From IMG/VR virus record IMGVR_UViG_3300021964_000026, positions 38,932 to 102,931 of that record: a stretch of 64,000 bases of DNA. The stretch is one strand, 5' to 3'. The notes under the pieces were generated by a model that saw nothing but the letters and a program-made list of their open reading frames with translations, was not told the DNA's origin and searched no databases. This document shows, piece by piece, positions 40,209-62,997 of this stretch. The number at the start of each line of letters is the position of its first letter. Within the stretch, counting starts at the first letter, position 1. Both the position numbers and the translations under genes were made by a program. The DNA comes from a virus.

Positions 40209-42056
40209 CTATTGGAAACCGCTTTCTTTCTGTTTTGAAGTCGGGTCTTTCGCGGCTTGAACGCTGTCAAGAGCCTGTTCAAGCGGTGTCTTTTCACTTC
40301 CGCGTTGATTCTTTTTGGAAGAGGGTGCGCCCGATTGATGGGTTTCGGAACTGATAGGTGCAGGGCCACGGTCGCGCTGACCTGTGCCTTCACCAAGTCC
40401 GATGGCCTTCTCCATCATCATGATTTGACCGCCTCCCTGCGGTGGGGGTCCTCCCCCACCGGGGGGAAGCCCTGCCCCCGGCGGCATCATCGGACCCCCA
40501 CCCTGTGGAGGTATGCCGCCCCCCGGCGGCATGGGTGGAGGCATACCGCCACCCGGTGGCATACCGCCACCCGGTGGCATACCGCCCATCGCGCCACCCT
40601 GTTGTTGCATGGCGGCTTCTTGTGGGTCGGGTTTCTTGTAAACGAAGCGTATGTCGCTCCCAGCATCTTCGGTCAATTCCGGCTGGAAACCAAGTGCTTG
40701 CATACGCTGTGCGATGTTGACTTCCTGTTCGTCGCGTCGCAGTCGTGTGATTTCATCCTCTTCCTCGTTTGGATACAGCGTGAGCGACCAATCGTGAACG
40801 CCCATTTGTTCAAGCAATCGTGGGAACAATTCACGCGAATACAACTTTTGACCCGATTCAACAGCGCGGTTGGTCACAAGGATTTGCATACCCTCGTTAT
40901 TGAGTCCACCCGATTTACCCGCGTCCATCATGAACACATTGGATACACCGTAGAAAGCGGCGATACGCATGCGGATTTCGTCGCGAACCTGCGCGTATTG
41001 CATTTCATCAAGACTATCCATGAAGCGAACAAACTCAACTTTACCACGACCCGATGCTGATTCAACACCAACCTTCGGGATGTAGTGAGGGTCGCGTTCC
41101 ATTTTCTCTTCTGCGCCTTTCCAAAACGAAGCGGTGGATTGAATGTTGTCCGTGGTGATAGCGAGAACGCCACGAGGAATACGACGCTTTTGATACGCGA
41201 GGTAGATGTAGTTGTCCATCGCGGTGAGTGATTGCGCCTGTCGCCACATGCTGGCTACGGGTGAGCGACCGTAGAGTTTTGACGGATTGAACTTTGAGAT
41301 GTGCAACACTTCACCGTCAATGTAGTATTGCGTCTTTCCACTACCGGCGGTGTTGATGTAGTGAACATCTTGGAGAGGCAAACCGCAGTTGTGAACTTCA
41401 CACTTTTTGTGGTCGCCGTTGTGGGGATAGGTCTTATCGCGATGCACAGGACACAGAAGGTATCGTCCTCCGCGCTTACCTGCTTTGTCAGCCACAATGC
41501 GCATGAAAGTGGGGTCGCCACGCACCAACTCTTTGATGCGGAAAAACTCAATTTCACCGTTCTTCGGGTCAATAAAATACTCCTTGATGAGCAAAAGAAA
41601 CGCGTCATCAACGATGTCCAAGTCCCATTCAATCTCTTTCATCACCTCAATGAAGGATTGGTCCATGCTGTTGCGTTGTTTCATCAACCAGCGCGGGTAA
41701 AGGATTTGGTCAGCGTCGGGGGTTTCAAACTCTTCTTGACCGCAAATGCGACATTGACTCACCGTATCGTGTTGATACTCTTCTTCACAGTTCGTGCATT
41801 TCTTGTGAAACTTCTTCTCCCAATAGTAGCCGCGACGAAAAATCTCTTGACATAGCGTGTTAATGGTCGTGCGGAGGATGATGGATTCTTGAACGGTCGC
41901 GTAAAGCGCAGGGATGGACACACCTTGGACGAGAACGGGTTCTTGGATACCCGTCTTCCAAAGCGGCATTTGTGGTTCGGGGGTTGTTCGGCGGCTAAAC
42001 GGCTTCGTCAATGTTGACAAAAAACGACCGACTAAGCCTCTTTCTTCGGCCATCAT
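40209..42056 (-). CDS. Portal protein (615 aa) with two Zn-ribbon insertions and Pro/Gly/Met-rich tail
   Basis: EVLHISKFNPSKLYGRSPV, DEMQYAQVRDEIRMRIAAFYGV are HK97-family portal motifs; position between TerL and protease. Confidence 0.9.
   Translation of the reverse strand: MMAEERGLVGRFLSTLTKPFSRRTTPEPQMPLWKTGIQEPVLVQGVSIPALYATVQESIILRTTINTLCQEIFRRGYYWEKKFHKKCTNCEEEYQHDTVSQCRICGQEEFETPDADQILYPRWLMKQRNSMDQSFIEVMKEIEWDLDIVDDAFLLLIKEYFIDPKNGEIEFFRIKELVRGDPTFMRIVADKAGKRGGRYLLCPVHRDKTYPHNGDHKKCEVHNCGLPLQDVHYINTAGSGKTQYYIDGEVLHISKFNPSKLYGRSPVASMWRQAQSLTAMDNYIYLAYQKRRIPRGVLAITTDNIQSTASFWKGAEEKMERDPHYIPKVGVESASGRGKVEFVRFMDSLDEMQYAQVRDEIRMRIAAFYGVSNVFMMDAGKSGGLNNEGMQILVTNRAVESGQKLYSRELFPRLLEQMGVHDWSLTLYPNEEEDEITRLRRDEQEVNIAQRMQALGFQPELTEDAGSDIRFVYKKPDPQEAAMQQQGGAMGGMPPGGGMPPGGGMPPPMPPGGGIPPQGGGPMMPPGAGLPPGGGGPPPQGGGQIMMMEKAIGLGEGTGQRDRGPAPISSETHQSGAPSSKKNQRGSEKTPLEQALDSVQAAKDPTSKQKESGFQ
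40540..40586. repeat. 18-bp tandem repeat (GGCATACCGCCACCCGGT, ~2.6 copies) encoding GGMPPG
   Basis: Direct inspection; lies within portal low-complexity tail. Confidence 0.85.
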
Positions 42057-43459
42057 ATCATCTCCACAAGTCGGTTAGCGTCGTCAAGGAGACGAAGGGT
42101 TTCACCATCCCGACTGAATAGCGCACGCACTCCCGCCTCATCAATGTTCCACTCCTTAAGCAATTCTTCACGCTTGTCCGGAACATCCTTCCAATTTAAC
42201 CATTTGACGATGCGATAAAGTTCATCGCGACGCGATTTGATAATGTCAGTTTTCCGACCGCGCAAATCAAGCAATTCAAGGACAGCACCCGCTTGTCCCT
42301 TCTTCATACGAAGGTGCGGACGAATACCCTTCATCAATGCGCGAAGGTCGTTTTCGCTGTAAAATTGAAGACGATGTTGTGTGCGTCGGCTGTTCTTGTG
42401 GATTTTCAAATCGGTTTGAAGCACACCACAACCGAGGGCTTTGTGCAATTGTTCGCAATGCAACTTCCCCCGCTCACCTGTCGCGATGAAACCAGCACGA
42501 GGCTCAAGCCGCTTGGTGATGGTGATGTAGCCATCAGCGTCAAGGAAGCCAGCGGCGTAAGCCCACACATCCTTGAAAATCACGGTGTTATCGCGAACGA
42601 TTCCCCACCCTGCACCGACTTTTTCAATGTCGTATTCTACACCATGCATTTTGAACAGCGCGCTTAGTTGCGGTATTGAAAGGTGTTTGGTGTTTTCCAT
42701 GCTCGCAAACACTTCACTCGCAGGTAAAGGTCCGCGCTCTTCAAGCACCGTCGCGGCTTTTGTCAAGTAAATTGCATCGGTCTTTTTGATGTTGTCAACC
42801 GAATGGAGACTGTTTCGCCACTCTTTTTTTGCATTCTTTTTCAGTTGTTGCGCGTCAACCCACATCTGCCGTTGTTCTTCATTGAAGTCGCCTTCAATCA
42901 ACAGCAACTTGCTGATGATGTCGTTCGCTTTTTCCCATTGCACGCAAGCACGACGAAGTGCATATTCACGCGTTTGACCGTGTTTGCGGAGTGCGAGCAA
43001 ATCGCGTTCGCTCACACCCAAATTGCGAACGGTTGATTCGTGCTTCCCAATCCAATCAATGGATTGAAGCGTAGCCTCCACTTCCTGTTTCTTCGCAATG
43101 CGGATGGCGTCAATCGCGTGGTCAATGGCTTCGCGCATTTCTTTATGCTCGCGTCGTGCCATACGGAGGTCTTTGACCAAATCCCCAGCACCACGACCGA
43201 ACATTGATTGAAACCAACCACCGTCGGGGAGAGAACGGTTGAGTTGTTGAGCAACTTCCCGCGCCATCTGTTTCTTTTTTTCTTCTTCCTCTACTTCGTT
43301 AGGGCGCGGAGGTGTAGGGTTTGCGTTGGCTTCACCCTGTCCTTGAGACACAGGCATGGGTGCATCACCAAATGTCGGACCCTCAATGACATTCTTCAAC
43401 AACGGATTGTCGCTGAACATGTCGGGGTCCGACAAATCAATCAATACGCTCGCCCCCAA
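42053..43459 (-). CDS. Protein with C-terminal LAGLIDADG endonuclease-like domain (468 aa)
   Basis: YAAGFLDADGYITI motif followed by typical beta/alpha pattern (IRPHLRMKKGQA); helical N-terminal 290 aa. Confidence 0.85.
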   Translation of the reverse strand: MGASVLIDLSDPDMFSDNPLLKNVIEGPTFGDAPMPVSQGQGEANANPTPPRPNEVEEEEKKKQMAREVAQQLNRSLPDGGWFQSMFGRGAGDLVKDLRMARREHKEMREAIDHAIDAIRIAKKQEVEATLQSIDWIGKHESTVRNLGVSERDLLALRKHGQTREYALRRACVQWEKANDIISKLLLIEGDFNEEQRQMWVDAQQLKKNAKKEWRNSLHSVDNIKKTDAIYLTKAATVLEERGPLPASEVFASMENTKHLSIPQLSALFKMHGVEYDIEKVGAGWGIVRDNTVIFKDVWAYAAGFLDADGYITITKRLEPRAGFIATGERGKLHCEQLHKALGCGVLQTDLKIHKNSRRTQHRLQFYSENDLRALMKGIRPHLRMKKGQAGAVLELLDLRGRKTDIIKSRRDELYRIVKWLNWKDVPDKREELLKEWNIDEAGVRALFSRDGETLRLLDDANRLVEMI

Positions 43460-50530: not shown

Positions 50531-51789
50531 CCAAGACCACCTCGCCTCACATATAGGTCGTAGGGGTGCGCTCCCCAGCGTGTCGCGTCATCATCGGGGT
50601 CAGTCTCCGTCGCACCTGTGGGTGCAGAAGTCAAGCCACCCGACGCGTTATCGGTCGCACCTTCGGTCGCACCCTGCATGGATTTGTCCTCTTTGCGCAT
50701 CATGCGTCGCAACAAATGATTGAGTTGGTCAATGAGTTGACGGTATTCAATACGGTCGCGAGGCGAAATGCGGTTAGTCAGTTTAACACGCTGTGCGCGC
50801 GCTTTCAAGAACTCTTCGGAGGCGAGAATAGCGTCGCTCGCACCAATGCCGCCAGCACCGCCAGCGAGTGATGTCGCTTCGGACATCATTTTTCCACCGG
50901 GTGTTTTCGCTGTGCGCGGTTGCCGAGTAGCCTTTGAGTGTGGTTTGGAGTCGCGAGAGCCACGAGGCGCGCGGACCTTTCTCGCTTCGGGTGTAACAGT
51001 CGGTGTTTGATAAGGGTCGTCCAGCGGTGGTGATTCAAGTGCTGTTTGTTGACGAAAGTCTTGACCTATGCGCTTTTGCGGGTTTGCATAGTTTGAGCGT
51101 GCTTGTGTTTGTGTGGCAGAAGTCAAACGAGGGAACCCGAAGCGATTTGGTTGTTGGTGTCCGTAGAATCCACCGAACGAACGAAACGGTGCTGAACCAG
51201 CCATCATCGGTGTAATTGCGGCTGTTCGTCGTCTTGGGCCAACGCGATATTGCTTACTTTTTTTGCCTTTACCCTTCGTTTGAGTTTCGGTGGTTTCTAT
51301 TTTCCCTTTCTTCCGCCTACCTTTCTTGGCGCGTTGCCTCGCCATCACCGTATCAATGGTGGTGGTTTTCTTCGGTTTTTCATCATCAAACTTCGGTTCG
51401 CGTTTTTTGCGAATCATTTCAAACGCTTCATCAATAAATGGAGCGGTGGACATCAACATGTTCATCCCCATGCCGCTTGCGCGAGGGTTTGCGCCGTCAA
51501 TTGCTTCGCTTTGACCGACCTGCCCTGTGAGTTGGCTCAATTCAGCCTGTTGCTTCACTTGACTGTCTTCTTCGTCATTGGGATTCTTTTGCGGGATTTT
51601 GATTTTCATGTGTTGCAATCCCTGCAATTTATGAGCGCGCTGTTCTTGTTCTTCACGCTTCTTCGCATCGTGTCGTGCGCGCTCATCGGAGTCTTCACGA
51701 CCCACTTGGGAATCACCTTGCAATTCTTCCGCGCTTTCGCGTGGGTTGAAACGCATACCAGCGGTGCTTCCTTCGGGTCCACCGACCAT
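50527..51789 (-). CDS. Basic low-complexity protein (420 aa)
   Basis: K/R-rich core (RQRAKKGRRKKGK); coupled ORF. Confidence 0.75.
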   Translation of the reverse strand: MVGGPEGSTAGMRFNPRESAEELQGDSQVGREDSDERARHDAKKREEQEQRAHKLQGLQHMKIKIPQKNPNDEEDSQVKQQAELSQLTGQVGQSEAIDGANPRASGMGMNMLMSTAPFIDEAFEMIRKKREPKFDDEKPKKTTTIDTVMARQRAKKGRRKKGKIETTETQTKGKGKKSKQYRVGPRRRTAAITPMMAGSAPFRSFGGFYGHQQPNRFGFPRLTSATQTQARSNYANPQKRIGQDFRQQTALESPPLDDPYQTPTVTPEARKVRAPRGSRDSKPHSKATRQPRTAKTPGGKMMSEATSLAGGAGGIGASDAILASEEFLKARAQRVKLTNRISPRDRIEYRQLIDQLNHLLRRMMRKEDKSMQGATEGATDNASGGLTSAPTGATETDPDDDATRWGAHPYDLYVRRGGLG

Positions 51790-52457
51790 CAGTCTTCACC
51801 ACCCATGAGTTTTCCACGAAGTCGCGCCCACACTTCGGGACTCTCTTTCGCCAATTCAACCTTGAGAATGTTGATGGTTTGAGCGTTCATGGTTTCGTTG
51901 GTTGTTCCAGCCGCGCGCTCTTGAACGCGCATGATGTCTTTTACCGTCTCACGCACCTCTTTGTGAAGTGAAACGATGTTGCGCACATATTGAGGGTCGT
52001 TGCGGTCAGCGTCGTCAAGAAAATGTCCCAATTCGCCGTTAATTCGCGATAGGTTGTTGCGCAAAGCATTCATTTCATGCCCTGCTTCAACGATGATAAG
52101 GTCTGCCGCACCCTTTTGCACAACGGGTTTGAGGTGGTGCTTGAGGTGATGATAAATGCTGGATTCGGGCATTTGGATGTCCAAAGCGATTTCTTCGGCG
52201 GTCATTGACGCGTTGAAGTAGGCCATTTCCAACTCTTCGCGCTTAATAGACACACAAAAACCGCATTCGCTGTTGCTCCCCATGTGATATTCGCCCATGT
52301 GGTTGCGAAAATGACGGTCAGCCGTTCCTTCGCGCCAACCTTTGTCTTTGTCCAACTGTTTTGCGATAATGATGCCATGTGTCATCATTTCCTCAAGACC
52401 GTCGCGTTCCGAGTCTTGACAAAACTTGCAAGACGCTCGCGTTATACGCTCCGCCAT
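51789..52457 (-). CDS. Tandem Zn-HTH plus coiled-coil protein; terminase small subunit candidate (222 aa)
   Basis: Two repeats CxxC-(HTH)-HxxxH (CKFC...RHFRNH; CGFC...HHLKHH) followed by oligomerisation-like helices; upstream of terL. Confidence 0.55.
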   Translation of the reverse strand: MAERITRASCKFCQDSERDGLEEMMTHGIIIAKQLDKDKGWREGTADRHFRNHMGEYHMGSNSECGFCVSIKREELEMAYFNASMTAEEIALDIQMPESSIYHHLKHHLKPVVQKGAADLIIVEAGHEMNALRNNLSRINGELGHFLDDADRNDPQYVRNIVSLHKEVRETVKDIMRVQERAAGTTNETMNAQTINILKVELAKESPEVWARLRGKLMGGED

Positions 52458-52494
52458 AGCAAACTCCAAGTAGCCGTAGCAAAAGAGTGTTTCC

Positions 52495-52833
52495 ATGCGA
52501 AAGCGGCTCGGTCGTGCGCCTAAAGTTGCGGGTGTTCCACTCACCGTGGACACAGCGAGAAGCCTTTCGCGGGCGGCATTGGACATCATCGCCAACAACA
52601 AAGCATCATTGAGTGAGCGAGAACGCCGAATGAACATTTGTCGCGCATGTCCCGACCGAAATCACGACCGTTGCGGTCTTTGTGGTTGTTTCATCAAAAC
52701 GAAAACCATTCTCAACAGTAGCGAATGTCCCGTCGGAAAATGGTCAACCCTGTTGACCGAGACGGCGGTAGACGATGCCGGTCGCGCTAAAACAAACGAA
52801 AAGCGCGCCGATAATCCAAGTGAGCGTGTTTGA
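52495..52833 (+). CDS. Cys-rich small viral protein (DUF6171-like)
   Basis: RRMNICRACP...RCGLCGCFIKTKT...CPVGKW is a recurrent phage motif; the only convincing plus-strand gene inside the late region. Confidence 0.7.
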   Translation: MRKRLGRAPKVAGVPLTVDTARSLSRAALDIIANNKASLSERERRMNICRACPDRNHDRCGLCGCFIKTKTILNSSECPVGKWSTLLTETAVDDAGRAKTNEKRADNPSERV

Positions 52834-52977
52834 ATCCATTTTTGGACCGGAAAACACCAACAACATGAAGCAACCCAGCGTTAGCGAGATGAGTTGCACC
52901 ATTATCATGTCAACAACAACGGATTTGCGCAAATTGGTCATATCGCTAACAGCACCAAAGAGTGTAGTCATGTCCAT
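52744..52977 (-). CDS. Small two-TM membrane protein (77 aa), holin-like topology
   Basis: Two hydrophobic segments and basic C-terminus (YRRLGQQG). Confidence 0.65.
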   Translation of the reverse strand: MDMTTLFGAVSDMTNLRKSVVVDMIMVQLISLTLGCFMLLVFSGPKMDSNTLTWIIGALFVCFSATGIVYRRLGQQG

Positions 52978-52981
52978 GTTA

Positions 52982-53554
52982 TCACCGCCCCGTCATCACC
53001 GAGCGAAGGAATGAACCAGCACCTTGACCCACGCTTTGCACCATACCGGGGTCTGCGAGCGCGCTATCCAGCATACCTTGCATAGTTGATTGATTCGCGA
53101 TAGCGACTATTTGCTGGAATTGCATGTTCATTTGCTGAACATTGTTGGAGGCCGCGTTGAGGATTTGCGTTTGGGTCATGGTCACGCTATCACCCGTTGG
53201 CAAACCCTGCACGCCGCTAAAATCAAAGGTAAAACCGTCGTCTGCCTCTTTGATTTTGGCGTTCGCGAGCATTTGATGCACCGAAACCGCGACCACATTG
53301 CTGATGAGGCCGATAAGCATGTTCAAGTTCGCACCGTTGTTGTCCGATAGCCACTTATCAATGAGCGGGTTGGTGGTTATCATCATGGATAGGATGTCCA
53401 TTTCGCTCGGTGGGGGTGGGGGTGCGTAGGGATTGTAGCCGCCACCCGCGCTCATGGTTCCCATTTGAGGCACTTGTTGTTGTCCATTCGGCAATCCGAG
53501 GTTCAACGCACCCGGATTTTGTGCAGGTTGTTGGTTATTTGACCACCATGCCAT
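52982..53554 (-). CDS. Q/N/M-rich protein with poly-Pro stretch (190 aa)
   Basis: GAGGTGG RBS; YAPPPPP; amphipathic helices. Confidence 0.75.
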   Translation of the reverse strand: MAWWSNNQQPAQNPGALNLGLPNGQQQVPQMGTMSAGGGYNPYAPPPPPSEMDILSMMITTNPLIDKWLSDNNGANLNMLIGLISNVVAVSVHQMLANAKIKEADDGFTFDFSGVQGLPTGDSVTMTQTQILNAASNNVQQMNMQFQQIVAIANQSTMQGMLDSALADPGMVQSVGQGAGSFLRSVMTGR

Positions 53555-53563
53555 GATACCACC

Positions 53564-54445
53564 TCACGCGCTACCCTCATTTTGTTGTTGCGGTAGAGGG
53601 AGAGGTGCGCTTTGTTGTTGCATTTGATGCATCGCGAGTGCGTCATGAAGCAGTTTTGTGTTGTTCCCCGCTTGGAATTGACGCATATCAAACACAATCA
53701 TCACCAAATCGTTCATTCCCGTCGCGGAATTGGTGAAATGCGTGATGGGAATGTTGTCTTGTTTCAACATCGCGAAGAATTGTTCGTATTTTGCAAGGAT
53801 TGGCGGCGTATTATCCTTCTTTTTGATGCTGTTGACAGGCACAGCAACGACTGAAACACCCTTTTTCAACTTGGCTTTGAGGGTTCCGCCACTCGCTTCT
53901 TCCTCCGCTTCATCCTCTTTTTCCCATTTTGTAAGCAAATGATACAGGTGAAGGTGTTCCGGGCAGTAAGTTGCGCGCATTCTACGACCGCTTGTGACCT
54001 TTTCTCGCGCTACGAAGGCTTCAATCTCGCCTGTGACCGGGTTTTTGAAGTAAATGTCCCACAGCGATTTACCGTTTTCTTCGTCAATAATTTGCTCGTA
54101 GATGTTGCCAGCCATGCGTAGAAGGTATTCAACATCGCATCCATCCACGCAACAGCGCATTGTGTTGGTGTTGTAGCGATATTTGCCACCCCAAGCGCGT
54201 TTTGGAGAGAAAATAGACCGTTTTGTTGGCGTAAGCAACTTGTAAGCCTGTTTAATGTCCTTTCTACGCGCTTTTTTGAGGTTTGAGTGCTGTGAAGGGA
54301 AGAAATTGACCTGCGGAACCTCAATGTGGTCGCTCGCGTTGGTCATCGCGGCCTGTGCAGAAGCCTGTTGTTGCATCTGCGCGAGGCTCATTTGAGTCTG
54401 TGCGGCAAGCCGCAGTAGGTCGTTTTGGGGTGTATTTCCAAGCAT
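53564..54445 (-). CDS. Putative Zn-binding protein with Q-rich termini (293 aa)
   Basis: CCVDGC...YCPEH; directly downstream of GTPase. Confidence 0.75.
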   Translation of the reverse strand: MLGNTPQNDLLRLAAQTQMSLAQMQQQASAQAAMTNASDHIEVPQVNFFPSQHSNLKKARRKDIKQAYKLLTPTKRSIFSPKRAWGGKYRYNTNTMRCCVDGCDVEYLLRMAGNIYEQIIDEENGKSLWDIYFKNPVTGEIEAFVAREKVTSGRRMRATYCPEHLHLYHLLTKWEKEDEAEEEASGGTLKAKLKKGVSVVAVPVNSIKKKDNTPPILAKYEQFFAMLKQDNIPITHFTNSATGMNDLVMIVFDMRQFQAGNNTKLLHDALAMHQMQQQSAPLPLPQQQNEGSA

Positions 54446-54449
54446 TTTA

Positions 54450-55172
54450 TCACCAACTTAGCATCTCAATCATCGTTTTTTCAACATTCCAGCCAATTTT
54501 CGTCGCCATCATGCTAATGCGACACGGAATACCGGCTTTTTGGAGTCTTCGCATGGCTGGACGGTGTGCGTTGAACACTTTATGCTCTCGCAAACGCCCG
54601 GATTGCCACAAAATGTTCGCATTATCGTCCCACCACTCGTCTGCTTTGTTCGCGACAAGCCAAATCTGCTTCGGAGCGTAGCGTTTTCCCTTCAAACGGG
54701 ACTTCAAAGAGCGATAATTCCACCTTTTTTCAATCAGCGCGTCTACGAGGTATTCAAAACCACCCACAGCGTCAATCACCTGCGCTCCGTTGCCTTTCAA
54801 AACGCGAGTATCGGTCATGAAAATGACGATTTCCACCTGTCGGTCCACCATATCGTCAATCCACAGGTTCCAAAAGCGTTGCTGACCGCCAATATCGGAG
54901 GAATGAACGACTCTTTTCTCACCTTTCCAGCGAACACGCTTGCGCGTTGCCTTCGGAAGCACATATCCGCCTCCTAAAAGCCGTTTCGCGTGCATGGTGC
55001 GCTCTTCAATGTCGTCCATTTCGCCCGGAGTGCGCATAAACAAGTCAAGCGTCGTTTTTCCGACCTGTGTTGGTCCGTAAACGCCGATTCTGCGCGGTTT
55101 GACGAAGTTGTAGAGTTCACGACCGTAAACGACCGCGCCCATCAACGCGCTACCAGCGAATGTTGCGACCAT
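54450..55172 (-). CDS. Arf-like small GTPase with N-terminal hydrophobic helix (240 aa)
   Basis: G1 GPTQVGKTT, G3 DIGGQQRFWNLW, IFMTD, G4 ANKAD, G5-like MATKIG; ATG 55172 in TGATG overlap. Confidence 0.85.
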   Translation of the reverse strand: MVATFAGSALMGAVVYGRELYNFVKPRRIGVYGPTQVGKTTLDLFMRTPGEMDDIEERTMHAKRLLGGGYVLPKATRKRVRWKGEKRVVHSSDIGGQQRFWNLWIDDMVDRQVEIVIFMTDTRVLKGNGAQVIDAVGGFEYLVDALIEKRWNYRSLKSRLKGKRYAPKQIWLVANKADEWWDDNANILWQSGRLREHKVFNAHRPAMRRLQKAGIPCRISMMATKIGWNVEKTMIEMLSW

Positions 55173-55417
55173 CAGCCCACCCAATCACGAACTTTGTTGT
55201 AAAACCACTCAACGGTGTTCTCCCAAATGCTCACATCGGCGGTTGTTTCAAACCAAGAAACACTCAAACCACTCGCGACGCCAACAATGATGCACAAAAT
55301 CAAGGCTCTTCCACGCTCGTAGTAGGTGTCAAGCGTGTTTTGCGTGTGCAAAGCGCGTAGTGTAGCCTCCGTCGCATCATCACCCGGCGTTTTGAAGAGC
55401 CAACCCAACGCTATCAC
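55172..55417 (-). CDS. Small single-TM membrane protein (~78-81 aa)
   Basis: ALILCIIVGVASGLSVSWF segment; coupled on both sides; may start at TTG 55408. Confidence 0.7.
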   Translation of the reverse strand: MIALGWLFKTPGDDATEATLRALHTQNTLDTYYERGRALILCIIVGVASGLSVSWFETTADVSIWENTVEWFYNKVRDWVG

Positions 55418-55935
55418 TCCTTTTTCTTTGCGTATGTGCCGTCAGCGTTCCTTTTGCGCGTGTCGCCACTACCCAAATTGAGTGATTTTTTGGTTTGAGC
55501 CTTGTGTTGCGGAGCATCCGCTTCCACATCACCGTTCATCAACTTGAGGTATTGCTGAACTTCGGGGTCTTCTTCCAACGCTTCAAGTTGTTTCGCGAAG
55601 GCGACCTCCTGTTTTTTGATTTCCATGTCCATTTGCTTCTGCGCAAAGCGCATTTGTTGATTTTGCATCTGCCGCGTCATGTTTCGTTGCATGTTTGAGA
55701 TGACCGCGCGTTGGTCCATGCCGTCTTGTGCCAGCATTTTGTAAATGAAATACGCCATACCCTGCAAAGTGAACGCGCCCATTGTGTAGGTGATGGCGTT
55801 CGTGTAGGTCGTGTCGTCGTAAAGCCACAGTCTCGCGTCAAAAACTGCGATGGCGCACCCGACAAGGATGCTCACAAATGAAATCAGTCCAAGCACGCGT
55901 AATTCGTCTTTGTTTTGGGGGGTTTGCGGTTGCAT
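55414..55935 (-). CDS. Two-TM membrane protein with cytoplasmic coiled coil (173 aa)
   Basis: AAGGAGG RBS before ATG 55935; two TM segments followed by a Q/M/K-rich heptad region. Confidence 0.75.
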   Translation of the reverse strand: MQPQTPQNKDELRVLGLISFVSILVGCAIAVFDARLWLYDDTTYTNAITYTMGAFTLQGMAYFIYKMLAQDGMDQRAVISNMQRNMTRQMQNQQMRFAQKQMDMEIKKQEVAFAKQLEALEEDPEVQQYLKLMNGDVEADAPQHKAQTKKSLNLGSGDTRKRNADGTYAKKKE

Positions 55936-55992
55936 AACAGAATCCTCCTTACTACGCGACATCGCGTGCGCTACATAAGCGTGTTGATTCAC

Positions 55993-56064
55993 CCTTTTAT
56001 TGATATTTTTATATTATCATTATAACAATAATAACTTATTTCTTATTATAAGAAAAATGTGAGA
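55993..56064. promoter_or_regulatory. Extremely AT-rich intergenic spacer (promoter/terminator or unwinding element)
   Basis: ~70 bp almost devoid of G/C in a ~50% GC genome, directly upstream of the GTPase operon. Confidence 0.5.
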
Positions 56065-59000
56065 TTATTGCGAATCCTCTTCACCCGGTCGCTTTGGTCG
56101 CATTGCTTCCGACATCATCGCGTAAGGCTGGTATGGAGGGAATGCCGCCATCCCTTCTCTCAACTCTCGCCCTGCTTGTAGTTGCTGACCGTATGCAGTT
56201 CGTGGGTTTTGCATCATTTCCGGCATATTCGGGTCCACCGTCGGTCGTCGTATATCTCGTCGTATATCCGCCGCCGTTCCCGCAACAGGAGGTTGTTGTG
56301 GTTGTTGTTGCATTATGCCACCAGCCGCACGCACATCTTGTTCAACTTGTTCATACCCCCTTTGCTTCCGAGCCTGTTCAATTTGATTCGCGGCGTAGTC
56401 GTATCCCATCATTGCGTCGTAGTTGTTTGGTCGGAGTGTTGGGTTCGTTTTGACCATCATGGTGAGCGCGTCATCAATCTGCTTCTGTGTTTCGGGAGGC
56501 AACGCACCAACCGCGTGTGCGGCAGTCAACTCACCGTAGTTGGCAATGCCGTCCTTTTTACCCGCTTCACCTTGAAGAATGCGGTCCATCAATTGCTCGT
56601 ATTCGTAGTTTGGTTGTTCGCGGAACTCCGTCATGCGAACCATCATGTCATACGCGTTTTGGTCCGCTTCGGAAATGTTGACCGGGTTGTTAGCGTTGAT
56701 GAGGTCGCGTAGTTTTGTTTCTTCAAATGAGCGCGAAACGACATCTTCTCCATCCTCGTCTTTCGTTGTTTGATACTTCATCACACCCATCGGTAGTCGC
56801 TGAATGTCATCAAAAGCCAAGTTCGCGCGAACCTTGTCTGCGAAATCACGCGGGCTGATTTTTACAACATTGTCGTATTTGTCACGCTGGTCGCCAGCGG
56901 TTTTGTGACCGAGCGGGATGCGGATGTAGGAATTGAGTTTGACGGCTTCGGCTAATTCCTCCGCCGTCTCAAAGTCTTTGTCTTCAATAATTTGCGCCGC
57001 GTAGTCTTCAAGAATGGTTCGCAGGTTTGAGTTTTCTTGAGTCTTCTGCGCGTAGTTGTTGATGTTCAAATCAGCGGGAATGTTGGGGTGGTCAAGTGCA
57101 TTAAGGTGGCCGTTGATGAAGACTTCCATCGCTTTGTGCTTCACGAAGTCTTGAAACAACTCCGTAATTTGCGCGTTGAGGCTTTTGGTGTAATTGTCGT
57201 TGATAGAACGCATTTGTCCCCTTTCGTTCGGTGTTAGGAAGAAGGCATCAGCGTCTTTGATACTTTTCAGTTTACCCTTCGCTTCATCGCTGAAAGTCAA
57301 TTCTGCTTCCGGCATTTCCAACTCCGAATAGGGAGACAAACCAAACTTGGCGCGCAAATCATTCAACTCTTCACTTGCGATACCGATAGCGCGTTTCATC
57401 ATCATTGGTGTTTTCATACGACCAAGCGCGCGTTGCACCTGTTGGGCTGTTTCGGGGTTGAACTCTTGACCTTTCTTCACACGCTTGAACGCCCTCATTG
57501 CCTTCGGCATGTGTCCGAAAATGCGCTCAACATCATCGGTGGTGATGGGGGACGGCTCGTGATTCGCGCCCGGTTCAAACAATCCTTCCTTCAATTCTTT
57601 TGGTGAGAGATGTCGCCCATGAGCAAATGTCAATGGGTTGTAGAAGCGATAACTCATTGGGAGTTTGTTAGCGAAAATGTCCTTGTAGGTGATGTTGAGT
57701 TTGCCCTCATCATCCATTGGCAACACATCCTTCTCACCGAACTTTACTTTCTTCGGTTTACCCGTTGCAGGGTTGATGATTTTTTCACCTGCCAATTGAC
57801 CACGCGTAAAACTCTCTTCTGCGTAAGACTGCAATTCTTGAAGCAAACCTTGCGCGTAGTGGAAATCATCGTTGTGGACATCACGGAAATCGTCAAGCGG
57901 GATGGCCTGTATTTTTGACACCAACTCTTTGAACTCGTCCGCGATTGATTGGTCTTGAGTTGACTGCACATAGCGCAAACCCATCGCGGTGAGTGTTTTG
58001 ATTCGGCTTTCAATTGAACTCTTGATGTGCGCGTGTTGAGCGGCTTCGTGTGTTCCCGTCATCGGTAGGATGCTTCCAACATCCAGCGTTGGTTTCTCTT
58101 CACCGATGTTGATGTCGCCAACATCCAGCGTTGGTTTCTCTTCACCGATGTTGATGTCGCCAACATCCAATTTAGGTTCGGGTTGAGGGATTGGTTTCCA
58201 TTTGCCATCAACCATTGTCAAACGCGTTGAAGCGTCAACGGCGTTTCGTCCTAAACGCCTACGCGCCTCTTCTCGTTTTCGTGCCGCGGCGTCTATTCCG
58301 CGGCTTCGGTCGCTCACGAACTTCTCGCGACCAATGATGTCGCCGTAGATTTGCATAGCGGGTTTGAGTGGTTTCATGTCATACAATTCTCGCACGAAAT
58401 CCGGCATGTCGTCGGATGTCAGCATGCTGGTCTTCATCGCGAGAAGTTGGTTGGCGTAGTCCATCGCCTGTCCAGCCATACTGCTATGCACATAGTGGTG
58501 ATTCTTACCTTCAATCAACTCACCCGTTTCGCGGTCAATGTAGCCTTCAATGGGTGTCGGGTCTGTTGGGTCAATGATACCGCTACCCAAGCAATGCGAA
58601 CAAAGACCATTCGCGCACCTGCCTGTTTGGGAGTGTTCAGCGGTGTGGTCGCAATCCGGACACGCGAGTTGTTCGTGGTCGTGAGGTTCCATCAATTCAG
58701 CATGAGGGTGGTCATCAAACGATTTGGTCCCATGAGGTCGCAGATGTTGCTTCATGTATTTTTTCATCGCGGCTTCGTTGACACCCATTCCTTTCAATTC
58801 GGGAACATGGTGGGACAAGTAGATGGCCGCTTCATCGGGTGTGACATGCCGGTGGCCGAAGCAAGTGCCACACATCGTAGGTGCGTGGTTTTTGAAATTG
58901 CTCAAGAGATTAAACGCGTCATGAAGTCCTTGTTTGATTTTTTCTTCCGAGCCGCGCGTAAAGTGAGAGTTCTGCTCCCGTCGTGCGGCTTCTTCTTCGG

Positions 59001-62000
59001 TCAACAACCCCATCTCGTTTGGTTCCGCGTCATGGTGTTCTTGAGGAATGGTTGCGTGATTCATTTCCGCATCCGATGAAACTTCCATGTTGTCAATAGC
59101 ATCCGCGAGCGATTTGACTTCCTTCTTTGTGCTTGCCGCCTTCGTATCGTTCAACAAAGCCGACGCGCGCTTCTTTTCCTGTTCAGTCATGGGGTGTCCC
59201 ATCATGGCTCGCTTTGCGAACAGCATGTTTTCATCATTGATTCGCATTCGCGCTTTGTTGTTGTTGAAGAAACGGATACCTGTCCCACCCATTTCACCGA
59301 TGCGTCCCATTTTGAAGTTGTCAAGTGACATGCTGTAATCGGTCATCGGTTGCCCTGTTCCGGGGTCAATTGACAGGATGGTGTTGAAATCGTCGCCGTA
59401 AACATCCGCGTGGAGTTTGTTCATCGCGGCCAAGTAGTCTTCGTAGTTGTCAATGTCGCCCAACTTGGCGATTTTGTCTCCCGCCTTCAAGTAAGCCGCG
59501 ATAATACGACTGTTGAATCGCTCGGTGTGTTCCGGTAGGTTGTCTTTGAGAAGAGCGGCTTTCTTTTGCGCTTCTTCAACCAACCGCTCGCGATACTTGT
59601 ATTTGTCCTTCACCTTCTTGTAGCGTTTGTTGATGGCTACGCGTTGCTCTTTGATTTCGTCTTTCTGTTGCTGGGACGAGTAGAGTCCCGGCTCATTGAA
59701 CTCTCTACCGTCGCGCATCACTTTGACCGGTTTTGTTTGTTCCCACATCGCGTCGTTTTGAGCAATGGCGTCCAAGTAATTGTCGTAAGCCTCTTGGAAC
59801 AACGCGAGGTCTTCTTTTCGCTCACCGACAGCGGTCATCGCTTTACCGTAGTTGATGAGCGGTTCGTTGATGGTTTGAATGACATTGTTGCGAACAGCCT
59901 CGTTGTCATGCTTGATGTTGACATTATCCTTCCCGTAAACGCCTTTGTTCAAGTCTTTGATGAAATCCATCACGCCTTCAAATGCGTTCAATCGGTTTGC
60001 GAGCAAAATGCCGCGACGGTCTTCTTCATGATACCGGTCATGCGCGTCGTCGTTATCCAACAAAAACGAGTTGGCGACCAATTCTTCGTTGTTCAACCCA
60101 GCAGGGCCGGAAGCCACCGTCTTTTCACGATGCTTGTAGAGTCCGAACTTTTTGTAAATGGCTTGCGCGTTTGGGTTGCCGCTAAGGACCGCCTTTTTGA
60201 TTTCCTTTCGCAATCGCTTTGCCGTTCTGTTTTCCCACTCACCTTGATATTTCCCTTCCCCAGCGCGTCGCAGTTGCGACAATAAATCGTCGCGCTTGAA
60301 CTTGTCGCTGTTGGGGTAAATGAAGTTGTAAATCGCCTCCAATGAGGGTGTCCCTTCATCAGCCACGACCTTCAAAAAATCGTCGCCCAAACCCTCTTTT
60401 TGATACCGTTGCAACAACGGAACGGTCATCACTTTGTAAACATAGGGTGTTCGGTCGCCCAAACTGATAGGTGCGTTCGGTCGCTCTTGTTTTGCGCGTT
60501 CGGCTGTGCGCGTGCTGTGCCTGTCGGGATGACATGCGAGACATTCTTCGGGTTCGTGAAAAATATCCTTCTCGTATTCGGGTGGGATGTCGTCGGGGTC
60601 TGCTAACCCAAGTTGAGCGAACGCGTCTTCCTCCATGTGCTTTCGCGCGACATGGTTTCTTTGACGCTTTCTCATCTGTTCAGCGACTTTCGCTTGATGC
60701 TCGTTGTCTACGGCAGACCGTTGACCGTTGACCTTCATGAACGCAAGAAGTCGTCCAAGCGCGTATCCAGCAAGGCCACCACGCTCGGTTTCATTGACAA
60801 GCGAGTTCATCGCTTCTTCGTAGCCTTCGGGCGACATGTCTTTGTTGGCGTATTTCATAGCGGCCTCAACAAACGCGAGTTTGGAAATCCCCAAGTCGTC
60901 AATTCGCTTGGTCGCGTTGTTGAGTTGCGCACTCAACCTCGGCATGATGTTTGAGAGTCTACCGAAGTTTTGGACTGACCTGTATTGAGGGTTGCCCTCT
61001 TCGTCTTTACCAGCCTCCACAACGCTATAACCGGTCACGAGTTCATCCAACGCTTGATACCGCATTTTGTCATCAATGTCCATCTCTTCGGGTTTTTGGA
61101 ACTTGACGAAATCCTCCGCCGTCAAATTGAGTTTTGCGATTTTTTCGTCAATTTCGCGCTTTTCGTCGTCCTCTTTGGCGTTTTGCGCTTTGTGAGCCGC
61201 TACACGCAGTTGTCGCACAACGCGACCAACACCTGCGAGTTGGTGGTGAAGGTCTTGCACAGCCTCAATCATCTTCCCTTCGCTTGCGCCGTGAAGCATG
61301 TGAGACGGGTCAAAATCAGTCCCAGCCAGCCCACCGAGAACGGCTTCATCGTCAATTTGGTGTTTTTGTTCAGCGTCTTTGTTTTTGGTCAACGCCCTCT
61401 CGTGTTCGCGAATCGCGGTTTTGTGCATCTCAAATTGATGTTGCGTCAATTCACCCGTCTGCAACCTGCGTTCAAGGTCGCGCAAACGCTTGTCCATCGT
61501 GGTTCGTGTTGCTTCACCGCGAATCCGTTTCACTTCCGATTCCTCGGTGTTGATGGCCGATTCGGTTGCTTCTCCTAACCTACCGTATTGTGCCGCTTCA
61601 CTCGCACGCGATGCGCGTTCAGCGATGCTCCCAGCGGCTTGTCCTTGGTCAAGCCCTATCGCTCGCTCATCATCGCGACTTGAACCGCTCAACACTTCAC
61701 CGGGCGACATTGCCGCACCAAGACCGGGGTGATAACCAGCGTTGTCTTCATTTTCCAAGAAGTTGCCTATTTCCTCGCGCACTTTGTCGCTAAACGGACT
61801 TTTGTTGCTCGTGAAATAAGGGAGAAGGAAGTCGGGAATGTTCGGCGCGCCTGTTTCAATGCCAAGTTCCTTTGCCGCATCACGCATGGAGGGTGTGATA
61901 GCGTTGGGTCGCTGTTTTACGCTCTCACCAACAACGCCGCCACCACGCGTTCGCTTAGGGCCGAAGTTTTTCTGCCCCGTCAACGAAATCATGAACTCGT

Positions 62001-62997
62001 TGAATTGGTTTTGCAACAAACCAAACGCTCGCGCGTCGTCCATAGGAGCAAGTTCTTCACCCTCGTCGCTCATGGTGCGGTCAACGGTTCGCATACTTGG
62101 GTCGGCCTTGATTTTATCAATGCGTTGCAACAAACCTTGAGTCAGCGCGGTGGATGGTTTCTTGACCTGTATTTCGGGGACATCCTGTGGCCCCCGCTGG
62201 GTCATGTCCACCCGGTCAAAGAATTGCTTGTATTGGTCTTCCAACTGCTTATCCTCTCTACGCTTACGCGTTTTGAAAGCCTCAAGGTTGTCAAGTCCCG
62301 AATCGGTGTCGGTTTGTAGGTCTTCACGCTCTTCTTCGTATTGCCTGTCCCTAAACGAAGGTTGCACGACAACGCGCTTACGCTTCATGCGCACTTGTGG
62401 GTTCATCGGAGTTCCCATTTCATCTACACCAGCGTCGCGAGAAAGCGTGGTGTAAAGCGGGTGTTGCGCTTTCTTCATCAACTGCAAAATACCTTTGAGG
62501 CTATCCTTACGGTAAAACCCTTCTTGCGCGATAGGGTCGGCGATGAATGAGGATAGTTTTGGGTGTTTGATGCCCTTTTGCGCCGCCTCTTCCAGCGTGT
62601 CATTCTTTTGTTCATTGCCTTCATCATCCTCGTAGGTGAAGTTTTCATCCTCTTCGCGACATTTTTTCAGTTCGGGATACTTACCGCTTATTGTGTTCAG
62701 CGCGAAAATAACCGTGTCGTTGATGATGGGTTCCGAAGCGATAGAGGGCATACCGTCTTCGCGTTCAGCCTCCGGGTCTTCAATTCCCAAACCGCGCGCC
62801 AGCAATGTGTTGTGAATGCCGGTGATACCGTAGTAGAGATTCCACGCGTCTGCTTCGCTTTTCTCGGTCGCCTCGTATTTCTCAACCTCTTCAAGAAGAA
62901 AGGGTGCAAGGCTGTTGTAGCCTTGCTGGATAGCACCCATTCTGCTTTCGCGCTCGCCGTCTTCCTCGGCTTTGACGATGCGGATAAAGCGACCCAT
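56065..62997 (-). CDS. Very large protein of unknown function (2310 aa) with DnaJ-like Zn finger and LDVGDI repeats
   Basis: 6.9 kb ORF, mostly helical/charged; CGTCFG...CPDC...CSHCLGSG; begins MGRFIRIVK-A. Confidence 0.8.
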   Translation of the reverse strand: MGRFIRIVKAEEDGERESRMGAIQQGYNSLAPFLLEEVEKYEATEKSEADAWNLYYGITGIHNTLLARGLGIEDPEAEREDGMPSIASEPIINDTVIFALNTISGKYPELKKCREEDENFTYEDDEGNEQKNDTLEEAAQKGIKHPKLSSFIADPIAQEGFYRKDSLKGILQLMKKAQHPLYTTLSRDAGVDEMGTPMNPQVRMKRKRVVVQPSFRDRQYEEEREDLQTDTDSGLDNLEAFKTRKRREDKQLEDQYKQFFDRVDMTQRGPQDVPEIQVKKPSTALTQGLLQRIDKIKADPSMRTVDRTMSDEGEELAPMDDARAFGLLQNQFNEFMISLTGQKNFGPKRTRGGGVVGESVKQRPNAITPSMRDAAKELGIETGAPNIPDFLLPYFTSNKSPFSDKVREEIGNFLENEDNAGYHPGLGAAMSPGEVLSGSSRDDERAIGLDQGQAAGSIAERASRASEAAQYGRLGEATESAINTEESEVKRIRGEATRTTMDKRLRDLERRLQTGELTQHQFEMHKTAIREHERALTKNKDAEQKHQIDDEAVLGGLAGTDFDPSHMLHGASEGKMIEAVQDLHHQLAGVGRVVRQLRVAAHKAQNAKEDDEKREIDEKIAKLNLTAEDFVKFQKPEEMDIDDKMRYQALDELVTGYSVVEAGKDEEGNPQYRSVQNFGRLSNIMPRLSAQLNNATKRIDDLGISKLAFVEAAMKYANKDMSPEGYEEAMNSLVNETERGGLAGYALGRLLAFMKVNGQRSAVDNEHQAKVAEQMRKRQRNHVARKHMEEDAFAQLGLADPDDIPPEYEKDIFHEPEECLACHPDRHSTRTAERAKQERPNAPISLGDRTPYVYKVMTVPLLQRYQKEGLGDDFLKVVADEGTPSLEAIYNFIYPNSDKFKRDDLLSQLRRAGEGKYQGEWENRTAKRLRKEIKKAVLSGNPNAQAIYKKFGLYKHREKTVASGPAGLNNEELVANSFLLDNDDAHDRYHEEDRRGILLANRLNAFEGVMDFIKDLNKGVYGKDNVNIKHDNEAVRNNVIQTINEPLINYGKAMTAVGERKEDLALFQEAYDNYLDAIAQNDAMWEQTKPVKVMRDGREFNEPGLYSSQQQKDEIKEQRVAINKRYKKVKDKYKYRERLVEEAQKKAALLKDNLPEHTERFNSRIIAAYLKAGDKIAKLGDIDNYEDYLAAMNKLHADVYGDDFNTILSIDPGTGQPMTDYSMSLDNFKMGRIGEMGGTGIRFFNNNKARMRINDENMLFAKRAMMGHPMTEQEKKRASALLNDTKAASTKKEVKSLADAIDNMEVSSDAEMNHATIPQEHHDAEPNEMGLLTEEEAARREQNSHFTRGSEEKIKQGLHDAFNLLSNFKNHAPTMCGTCFGHRHVTPDEAAIYLSHHVPELKGMGVNEAAMKKYMKQHLRPHGTKSFDDHPHAELMEPHDHEQLACPDCDHTAEHSQTGRCANGLCSHCLGSGIIDPTDPTPIEGYIDRETGELIEGKNHHYVHSSMAGQAMDYANQLLAMKTSMLTSDDMPDFVRELYDMKPLKPAMQIYGDIIGREKFVSDRSRGIDAAARKREEARRRLGRNAVDASTRLTMVDGKWKPIPQPEPKLDVGDINIGEEKPTLDVGDINIGEEKPTLDVGSILPMTGTHEAAQHAHIKSSIESRIKTLTAMGLRYVQSTQDQSIADEFKELVSKIQAIPLDDFRDVHNDDFHYAQGLLQELQSYAEESFTRGQLAGEKIINPATGKPKKVKFGEKDVLPMDDEGKLNITYKDIFANKLPMSYRFYNPLTFAHGRHLSPKELKEGLFEPGANHEPSPITTDDVERIFGHMPKAMRAFKRVKKGQEFNPETAQQVQRALGRMKTPMMMKRAIGIASEELNDLRAKFGLSPYSELEMPEAELTFSDEAKGKLKSIKDADAFFLTPNERGQMRSINDNYTKSLNAQITELFQDFVKHKAMEVFINGHLNALDHPNIPADLNINNYAQKTQENSNLRTILEDYAAQIIEDKDFETAEELAEAVKLNSYIRIPLGHKTAGDQRDKYDNVVKISPRDFADKVRANLAFDDIQRLPMGVMKYQTTKDEDGEDVVSRSFEETKLRDLINANNPVNISEADQNAYDMMVRMTEFREQPNYEYEQLMDRILQGEAGKKDGIANYGELTAAHAVGALPPETQKQIDDALTMMVKTNPTLRPNNYDAMMGYDYAANQIEQARKQRGYEQVEQDVRAAGGIMQQQPQQPPVAGTAADIRRDIRRPTVDPNMPEMMQNPRTAYGQQLQAGRELREGMAAFPPYQPYAMMSEAMRPKRPGEEDSQ
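58076..58169. repeat. 42-bp perfect tandem repeat (~2.2 copies) encoding LDVGDINIGEEKPT
   Basis: Unit starts at 58076, 58118 and 58160. Confidence 0.9.

Follow-up and report, generated by a model that had tools for sequence, protein, structure and literature searches.

The region considered here is a stretch of 64,000 nucleotides (the window) that corresponds to positions 38,932 to 102,931 of the IMG/VR virus record IMGVR_UViG_3300021964_000026, which is 102,931 bp long and 98% complete. A gene on the minus strand of the window encodes a small GTPase. From comparisons of sequences and profiles, it is best treated as an orphan branch within the Ras-like superfamily that bears part of an Arf-like signature but is overall no closer to Arf than to Ras-like GTPases. 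The features of this gene and of its neighbourhood are listed in Table 1.

The virus itself encodes a large terminase, portal, prohead protease, HK97-type major capsid protein (MCP) and tail tube, and its MCP matches only those of haloarchaeal tailed viruses (33%) and methanogen viruses. Outside the window, the record includes genes for a family B DNA polymerase (PolB), SNF2/DEAD helicases and a Cpn60/thermosome chaperonin. These genes bear out the initial annotation of the window, in which the virus was taken for a tailed virus of archaea. The combination of a ~100-kb genome, a halovirus-like structural module, PolB, a chaperonin and marine origin supports its assignment to the magrovirus-type tailed archaeal viruses. 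Magroviruses (order Magrovirales) are presumed viruses of marine group II archaea with genomes of ~100 kb (PMC5434244, PMC10768690), and the host assignment used here is taken from the same literature. The chaperonin gene (L150:13734-15227, plus strand, outside the window) encodes a full-length Cpn60/TCP-1 protein (Pfam E 2e-116); magroviruses have been reported to carry one.

The GTPase gene and its viral family

In the list of open reading frames (ORFs), this gene spans 54450..55184 (minus strand) and starts with TTG. We prefer the ATG at 55172, which shares bases with the upstream stop codon (TGATG) and coincides with the start of the homologues. An AlphaFold2 model of the protein, built on 17 homologues, has a predicted local distance difference test score (pLDDT) of 84.6 and a predicted template modelling score (pTM) of 0.82, and consists of a G domain preceded by a helix. 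The protein displays the signatures of the Ras-like superfamily (TRAFAC), namely, G1 GxxxxGK[ST], G3 DxxG, G4 NKxD and G5 (S)A, along with the small G-domain fold. The small GTPase gene with its G3 and ANKAD G4 motifs, as initially annotated, is real: the motifs are near-invariant among 152 homologues and the fold is predicted confidently.

Table 1. Positions in the window of the GTPase gene, its motifs, the other genes of the operon and adjacent features
Feature	Position	Strand	Properties
Small GTPase gene	54450..55172	-	240 aa; ATG 55172, stop codon 54450-54452; ORF, translation, model, 152 homologues
N-terminal hydrophobic helix, residues 3-24 (22 residues)	55101..55166	-	DSSP helix in model; Gly/Ala/Ser-rich; residues 1-17 without charge
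G1/P-loop, G33-T41, GPTQVGKTT	55050..55076	-	G38, K39 152/152; T40, T41 151/152
Switch I insertion, residues 57-75, with family-specific R-T59-x-H61 motif and P73	54948..55004	-	Gap relative to ArfR (hhalign); T59, H61 150/152; basic
Probable switch I Thr, T76 (putative role)	54945..54947	-	T 132, S 16 of 152; just before beta2 in model
G3/switch II, D93-W104, DIGGQQRFWNLW	54861..54896	-	D93, G96 152/152; W101 149/152; W104 149-151/152; Q97 83-84/152
Basic insertion after helix 3, residues 146-168	54669..54737	-	Gap relative to ArfR; 9 K/R in 23 residues; extra helix 156-164 in model
G4, N175-D178, NKAD, guanine specificity	54639..54650	-	N175, K176 152/152; D178 151/152
G5, M222-A223-T224	54501..54509	-	A223 144/152; aligns with ArfR G5
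g192, membrane protein, first operon gene	55414..55992	-	Strong transmembrane segment 33-51, Gln-rich coiled-coil tail; 77/80 loci, same position
g81, small protein with one transmembrane segment	55172..55417	-	Transmembrane segment 38-56; 79/80 loci; stop overlaps GTPase start (TGATG)
g293, soluble orphan protein	53564..54445	-	Conserved basic patches; Cys/His motif C98...G-C..., Y-C161-P-E-H164-L-H166; 80/80 loci
g190, Pro/Gln-rich protein	52982..53554	-	One weakly hydrophobic segment; 56/80 loci by tblastn
g77, small protein with two transmembrane segments, holin-like topology	52744..52977	-	80/80 loci; faint PHROG holin match, E 0.055
g282	51789-52637	-	After the operon, 106-nt gap; weak helix-turn-helix match
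Promoter-like A/T-rich site	56045..56074	-	Gap upstream of g192, possible operon start; consensus scan only, 10/12 matches, no evidence of function

Conservation was assessed across the 152 full-length members of the family, with identity down to 30%. The nucleotide-binding residues are invariant, and a further set of invariant positions (T59, H61, W101, W104, R111, D121, R123 and H197) is specific to this family, including the Trp downstream of G3 (W104) that the initial annotation had singled out. The catalytic Gln noted there is present in the window protein but is not a family feature (83-84/152): the residue at the usual catalytic position, 97, is Q in 84 members, E in 39, D in 23 and H in 5. 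This variation, at the codon 54884-54886, occurs amid invariant neighbours, and acidic residues in this position are unusual for small GTPases.

Relative to the Asgard Arf-related GTPases (ArfR), the hhalign alignment shows three insertions of ~11-19 residues, in switch I, after helix 3 and after G4. The first two are basic, with 11 Lys/Arg in residues 57-92 and 9 in 146-168, in agreement with the basic insertions initially described, and the whole GTPase has a pI of 10.1.

The N-terminal extension, originally described as hydrophobic or amphipathic, folds in the model into a hydrophobic helix that is kept in all subfamilies and includes an invariant glycine, G7 (alignment A4), but is longer and less amphipathic than the helices of Arf. 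The median uncharged run at the N-terminus spans 16 residues in the viral family vs 7 in Arf, with a mean hydrophobicity of 0.59 vs 0.36 and a hydrophobic moment of 0.40 vs 0.51. The Kyte-Doolittle maximum over 18 residues, 1.21, is under the threshold of 1.6 for a transmembrane (TM) segment. The extension looks like a hydrophobic anchor more than an Arf-type amphipathic helix, and may bind a membrane.

As far as searched, members of the family occur only in marine archaeal tailed viruses of the magrovirus type. When 1.84 billion representatives were searched exhaustively with phmmer, 73 proteins were retrieved, all of which belong to the viral GTPase family and none to a named one, and there was no cellular homologue at E <= 1e-3; for the most divergent members of the family, too, no cellular link was seen that would point to their origin. 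IMG/VR contains 153 loci of the window's subfamily, 140 of a subfamily with only 32% identity and a few of a third subfamily, with P0046-type relatives absent from this search. The homologues were recovered on ~100-kb contigs from marine metagenomes, Tara among them, and some carry the JGI label 'GTPase SAR1 family protein'. The window protein has no Pfam match at E <= 10; searches of NCBIfam, PHROGs and PADLOC gave nothing usable, phmmer against PDB sequences gave no significant match, and tblastn against 50,697 phage and archaeal-virus records detected no relative.

A profile of the viral family found nothing in 300 Pseudomonadota genomes except for mis-binned contigs of one bin, so that bacterial Arf-annotated clusters of the ESM atlas, which had been considered as close kin, are unsupported by this search. 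A metagenome-assembled genome (MAG) labelled Maricaulis sp. (G001) contains three different magrovirus-like contigs (C111, C57 and C77; L083-L085), each encoding a family member. Maricaulis, the only match in prokaryote genomes, was rejected as a host: three different contigs in one MAG are read as mis-binned magrovirus DNA.

Relationship to Arf and Ras-like GTPases

The comparators were bacterial matches to Ras and Arf models from 300 genomes, GerdArfR1 orthologues and a broad Arf set of 34 sequences (eukaryotic Arf1/2, Arf6, Arl2, Arl4C and ARFRP1, a Korarchaeum protein and other Asgard ArfRs). The bacterial Ras-like proteins (~165 aa, Pfam Ras 95-115 bits) are presumably Rup1-like. A separate bacterial group of 190-aa proteins has the P-loop ITGPxxxGKTT and no NKxD and is putatively of the MglA/CvnD type; NCBIfam labels the comparator groups no further than 'small_GTP'.

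The Arf-like signature of the viral family appears to be real but local. With the Arf family (GerdArfR1, 8OUN/8OUM, and Arl8), the virus shares the G-domain fold, GKTT (151/152), DxGG at G3 (GG in 146/152) with a Trp at G3+11 (149-151/152), NKxD and a helix before beta1. The GG, the Trp and GKTT are absent in the bacterial Ras-like proteins, in which G3 is DxHGE and the P-loop GKTS, and which possess neither an N-terminal helix nor the insertions. Other hallmarks of Arf are lacking in the virus: W before G3 (0/152), R at G3+8 (1/152), the conserved Gln and PTxGF (0/152, as against 21/34 in the Arf set), in place of which the virus has P73-x-x-T76 after the insertion. Within the Arf set, the positions of the switch II signature (W)DxGGQxxxRxxW are present in 24-30 of 30. 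The viral proteins further differ from Arf in the variable catalytic residue, the longer, uncharged N-terminus and the three insertions.

These likenesses raise the possibility that the viral GTPase truly belongs to the Arf/ArfR family, as a fast-evolving protein or an old viral branch, and works like Arf/Sar1, with GTP binding shifting the interswitch and freeing the N-terminal helix into the membrane, whereupon effectors would be recruited. An interswitch toggle between the GDP and GTP forms is a mark of the Arf family, and structures of ArfR have been solved in both nucleotide states (10.1101/2024.02.28.582541). In favour of such a placement, the best match of the family profile in PDB is 8OUN (E 7.9e-07), a structure of the Asgard Arf-related GTPase GerdArfR1 (10.1101/2024.02.28.582541), with Arl8A/B next and Rab33B and Ras behind them. 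The viral hidden Markov model (HMM) scores GerdArfR1-type ArfR at 31.5 bits and the bacterial Ras-like proteins at 8.4, the top VIA matches are Arl2, Sar1, SR-beta and Arf6, and the nearest non-viral ESM atlas clusters are partly Arf-annotated.

The 31.5 bits of ArfR come from two segments only, the N-helix with the P-loop and beta3 with switch II, and the median member of the Arf family reaches just 11.6 bits. An hhalign match to a GerdArfR1-type protein (97.8% probability over 176 columns, with an identity to ArfR of 23%) was rejected as Arf-specific, the Ras-like control having scored the same. Over the whole domain, hhalign scores for the virus are 77.4 with the broad Arf set, 75.2 with ArfR, 74.6 with the bacterial Ras-like proteins and 28.3 with the 190-aa group, a tie between Arf and Ras-like. 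The N-terminal half favours Arf (61.3) and ArfR (67.1) over Ras-like (46.3), and the C-terminal half, with G4, G5 and helix 5, favours Ras-like (42.9) over Arf (36.1) and ArfR (22.7). The Pfam Arf model (PF00025) has no match above the cut-off in the window protein; when 17 members were compared, 8 matched it weakly (best E 0.0048), no more strongly than MMR_HSR1 or Roc, and a single member matched SRPRB (E 0.19). A Foldseek search of PDB ranks Rab/Ras first, with all E values alike.

The position of the viral clade in trees is similarly ambiguous. With LG+G4, the clade joins at the centre of the tree. With LG+C20+F+G4 (posterior mean site frequency, PMSF) and the broad Arf set, it adjoins one divergent Arf-like sequence on the Arf side, opposite the Ras-like, Rho and 190-aa groups, with support of 89-91. 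The viral stem in this tree is ~3.9 substitutions per site long, and long-branch artefacts are likely. Approximately unbiased (AU) tests reject nothing: virus with ArfR (p 0.36), virus with the 190-aa group (p 0.24), virus with Ras-like and Rho (p 0.364) and Arf monophyly without the virus (p 0.365) are all retained. The neighbour in the PMSF tree, P0313, is a divergent Arf-like metagenomic protein of 180 aa that scores 26 bits with the viral HMM.

Taken together, the Arf/Arl signature reported in the initial annotation holds for the switch II GG and Trp and for the local match to Arl8/ArfR, and GKTT is a further point shared with Arf, but the likeness does not extend to the domain as a whole. 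The two analyses proposed there each give a divided answer: the HMM comparison favours ArfR locally but Pfam Arf no more than MMR_HSR1/Roc, and the phylogeny leans to the Arf side without rejection of any alternative. Robust grouping with MglA/Rup-type GTPases, named there as the outcome that would speak against Arf, is not found. We regard membership in the Arf/ArfR family as doubtful, albeit a serious contender, and retain the description of the viral family as an orphan branch. The top PDB hit, the N-terminal half in hhalign, the PMSF tree and the ESM atlas clusters all count against that description, which may understate the true affinity to Arf.

Recent acquisition of a eukaryotic or Asgard Arf gene, the other origin that had been suggested, is a different matter. 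Its sole attraction is the likeness of the switch II motif to Arl8 and GerdArfR1. We consider such an event excluded, with only a vanishing residual probability, because there is no close cellular relative (no match from outside the family among the 1.84 billion representatives, and 23% identity to ArfR), the family is deeply diverged, down to 30% across three virus groups, and its synteny is conserved. Moreover, the hhalign score between Arf and Ras-like, 146.8, is about twice that of either with the virus (~75), and the presumed hosts are marine group II archaea.

Two other observations emerged from these searches. A tblastn search of plasmids with ArfR, meant to lead to archaeal ArvA-type genes, gave only a Nostoc and a Legionella match. 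A 3.1-kb contig in a genome of the phylum Pseudomonadota encodes a Rho/Rac-type GTPase (L119:1016-1624, plus strand) with a eukaryote-like P-loop region (KCVVVGDGAVGKTCLL) and a Pfam Ras score of 169 bits, either contamination or a transferred gene.

The operon and its surroundings

The GTPase gene is embedded in an operon that was compared across 80 related loci. The order of transcription, g192, g81, GTPase, g293, g190, g77 and g282, is identical in 80/80 loci. The genes overlap or lie a few bases apart, with Shine-Dalgarno sequences within the preceding gene; that of g293, GGTGA, is located inside the 3' end of the GTPase gene. The core order, TM protein, TM protein, GTPase, Cys/His protein, is kept in three deep virus groups, with GTPase identity of 30-40%. 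A homologue of g192 is also found in the P0006-type group (E 1e-16), the distant groups encode a protein of ~72-79 aa at the place of g81, and a g293-like protein with the same C...C / YCxxH motif follows the GTPase in all three deep groups.

No recognisable family was found for the neighbour genes in Pfam (nothing at E <= 1 beyond noise), PHROGs or PADLOC, and the structure model of g293 is poor (pLDDT 59). Downstream of g282, three more ORFs precede the large terminase gene, and g282 might encode the small terminase subunit.

The strand of the structural genes also carries three giant ORFs, 3962-19291 (-) of 5109 aa, 33083-39130 (-) of 2015 aa and 56065-62997 (-) of 2310 aa. The last of these adjoins the GTPase operon upstream, and short peptides are repeated in tandem in its product (LDVGDINIGEEKPT). 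A 468-aa ORF (42056-43459, minus strand), flanked by the portal gene and the region towards the terminase, includes a segment similar to HNH endonucleases (PHROG 5046, E 1e-10).

A proposed GTP switch at the host membrane

From the gene, its fold, motifs, conservation and operon, and from the type of virus, we infer a function, its timing, membrane binding and dependence on partners. We propose, with moderate confidence, that this is a virus-specific, deeply divergent small GTPase of the Ras-like superfamily acting as a membrane-attached GTP switch late in infection. Guanine nucleotide would be bound via the intact G1, G3, G4 and G5 motifs, and the protein would be held at, or cycle onto, the host membrane via the hydrophobic N-terminal helix and the very basic surface. 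The GTP-controlled switch would act with fixed partners, the two upstream membrane proteins and the downstream Cys/His protein. Hydrolysis is probably partner-dependent (in trans), given that Q, E, D or H may each occupy the usual catalytic position, and the first candidate for such a partner is the co-translated g293. The job would be a late one on the membrane, because the module heads a same-strand block that runs into the packaging and head genes; virion release is our first choice and a membrane-bound assembly site the second. Release is the most attractive option, since it is not known by what machinery tailed archaeal viruses leave the cell (PMC10791045).

Several considerations weigh against this proposal. 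The N-terminal segment, being below the TM threshold, could pack onto the G domain instead, and nucleic acid, not lipid, could be the ligand of the basic surface. The neighbours lack a recognisable family and the model of g293 is poor, so that g293 as a regulator is a guess, and for g77 the holin-like interpretation is based on its topology plus a faint match (E 0.055).

Alternatively, the GTPase might be no membrane switch at all and instead function in virion assembly, DNA packaging or translation, merely located near genes for membrane proteins. Its strongly basic character would also suit nucleic-acid binding, the operon lies upstream of the weak helix-turn-helix protein g282 and, beyond the three ORFs, of the large terminase, and there are weak matches to models of the MMR_HSR1 and EF-Tu type. 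However, the hydrophobic N-terminal helix is kept in all subfamilies, the gene is strictly coupled with TM proteins, not with terminase or capsid genes, across three virus groups, and there are no RNA-binding or extra domains, which makes such a role very unlikely.

The closest functional analogy to the proposed switch, by description, is the ArvA-ArvB-ArvC (OapABC) system, with a small GTPase from the archaeal world, a hydrophobic N-terminal helix, a zinc-type protein encoded in the operon and action at the membrane (PMC10927574). In Haloferax, vesicle formation is driven by ArvA, for which HHpred gives Pfam Arf as the best match, and the ArvA operon includes a zinc-ribbon protein, ArvC, that has been proposed as a GTPase-activating protein (PMC10927574). 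The viral gene could, accordingly, descend from an ArvA (OapA)-type GTPase of the euryarchaeal host and mediate ArvA-like membrane vesiculation with g293 as ArvC, a correspondence drawn by description only. The presumed host is a euryarchaeon (PMC5434244), a Cys/His protein follows the viral GTPase in all groups, and 7/17 members weakly match PF01926, the annotated family of ArvA. On the other side, the exhaustive phmmer search returned no cellular protein at E <= 1e-3, so that any such origin would be old; the viral neighbours match neither DUF2072 nor DUF2073, g293 has no match in Pfam, DUF2072 included, and two to three small TM proteins are encoded in addition in the viral operon. Furthermore, most ArvA homologues are found in Halobacteriota, Methanobacteriota and DPANN phyla, with Poseidoniales not named among them (PMC10927574). 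On balance, descent from ArvA seems quite improbable.

Two further systems offer partial parallels to the switch that we propose. Sar1 and SR-beta share the hydrophobic N-terminal anchor and tolerate His at the catalytic G3 position (His in 5/152 viral members), but show no significant sequence match, and the viral anchor is under the TM threshold. The Rab, Ras and Ran proteins of giant viruses are also virus-encoded small GTPases and give the only viral structural matches in BFVD; they clearly belong, however, to eukaryotic families and come from viruses that infect eukaryotes, in contrast to the orphan family of the magrovirus-type GTPase in an archaeal tailed virus.

For the origin of eukaryotic trafficking GTPases, the relevance that the initial annotation had claimed is smaller than hoped: measured with the Ras-like control, the family is not demonstrably Arf, and on the present phylogeny and structures it should not be cited as Arf outside Asgard archaea. 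The bearing on how viruses act at the host membrane is greater than that on the origin of Arf, because the family is overall no closer to Arf than to Ras-like GTPases. A bolder scenario, which we deem unlikely, is that of an ancient viral Arf/ArfR offshoot in viruses of Euryarchaeota, where the GTPase and its partners, the TM and Cys/His proteins, would make up a new GTP-switched release machine; if true, Arf-type membrane switches would not be confined to the Asgard-eukaryote line.

A word search of three magrovirus papers found no mention of a GTPase, and a literature search that combined magroviruses with GTPases returned no paper. Magroviruses are among the most abundant archaeal viruses of the surface ocean, and a strictly conserved viral GTP switch wired to membrane proteins would provide a concrete, expressible candidate for virus exit or another step at the membrane.

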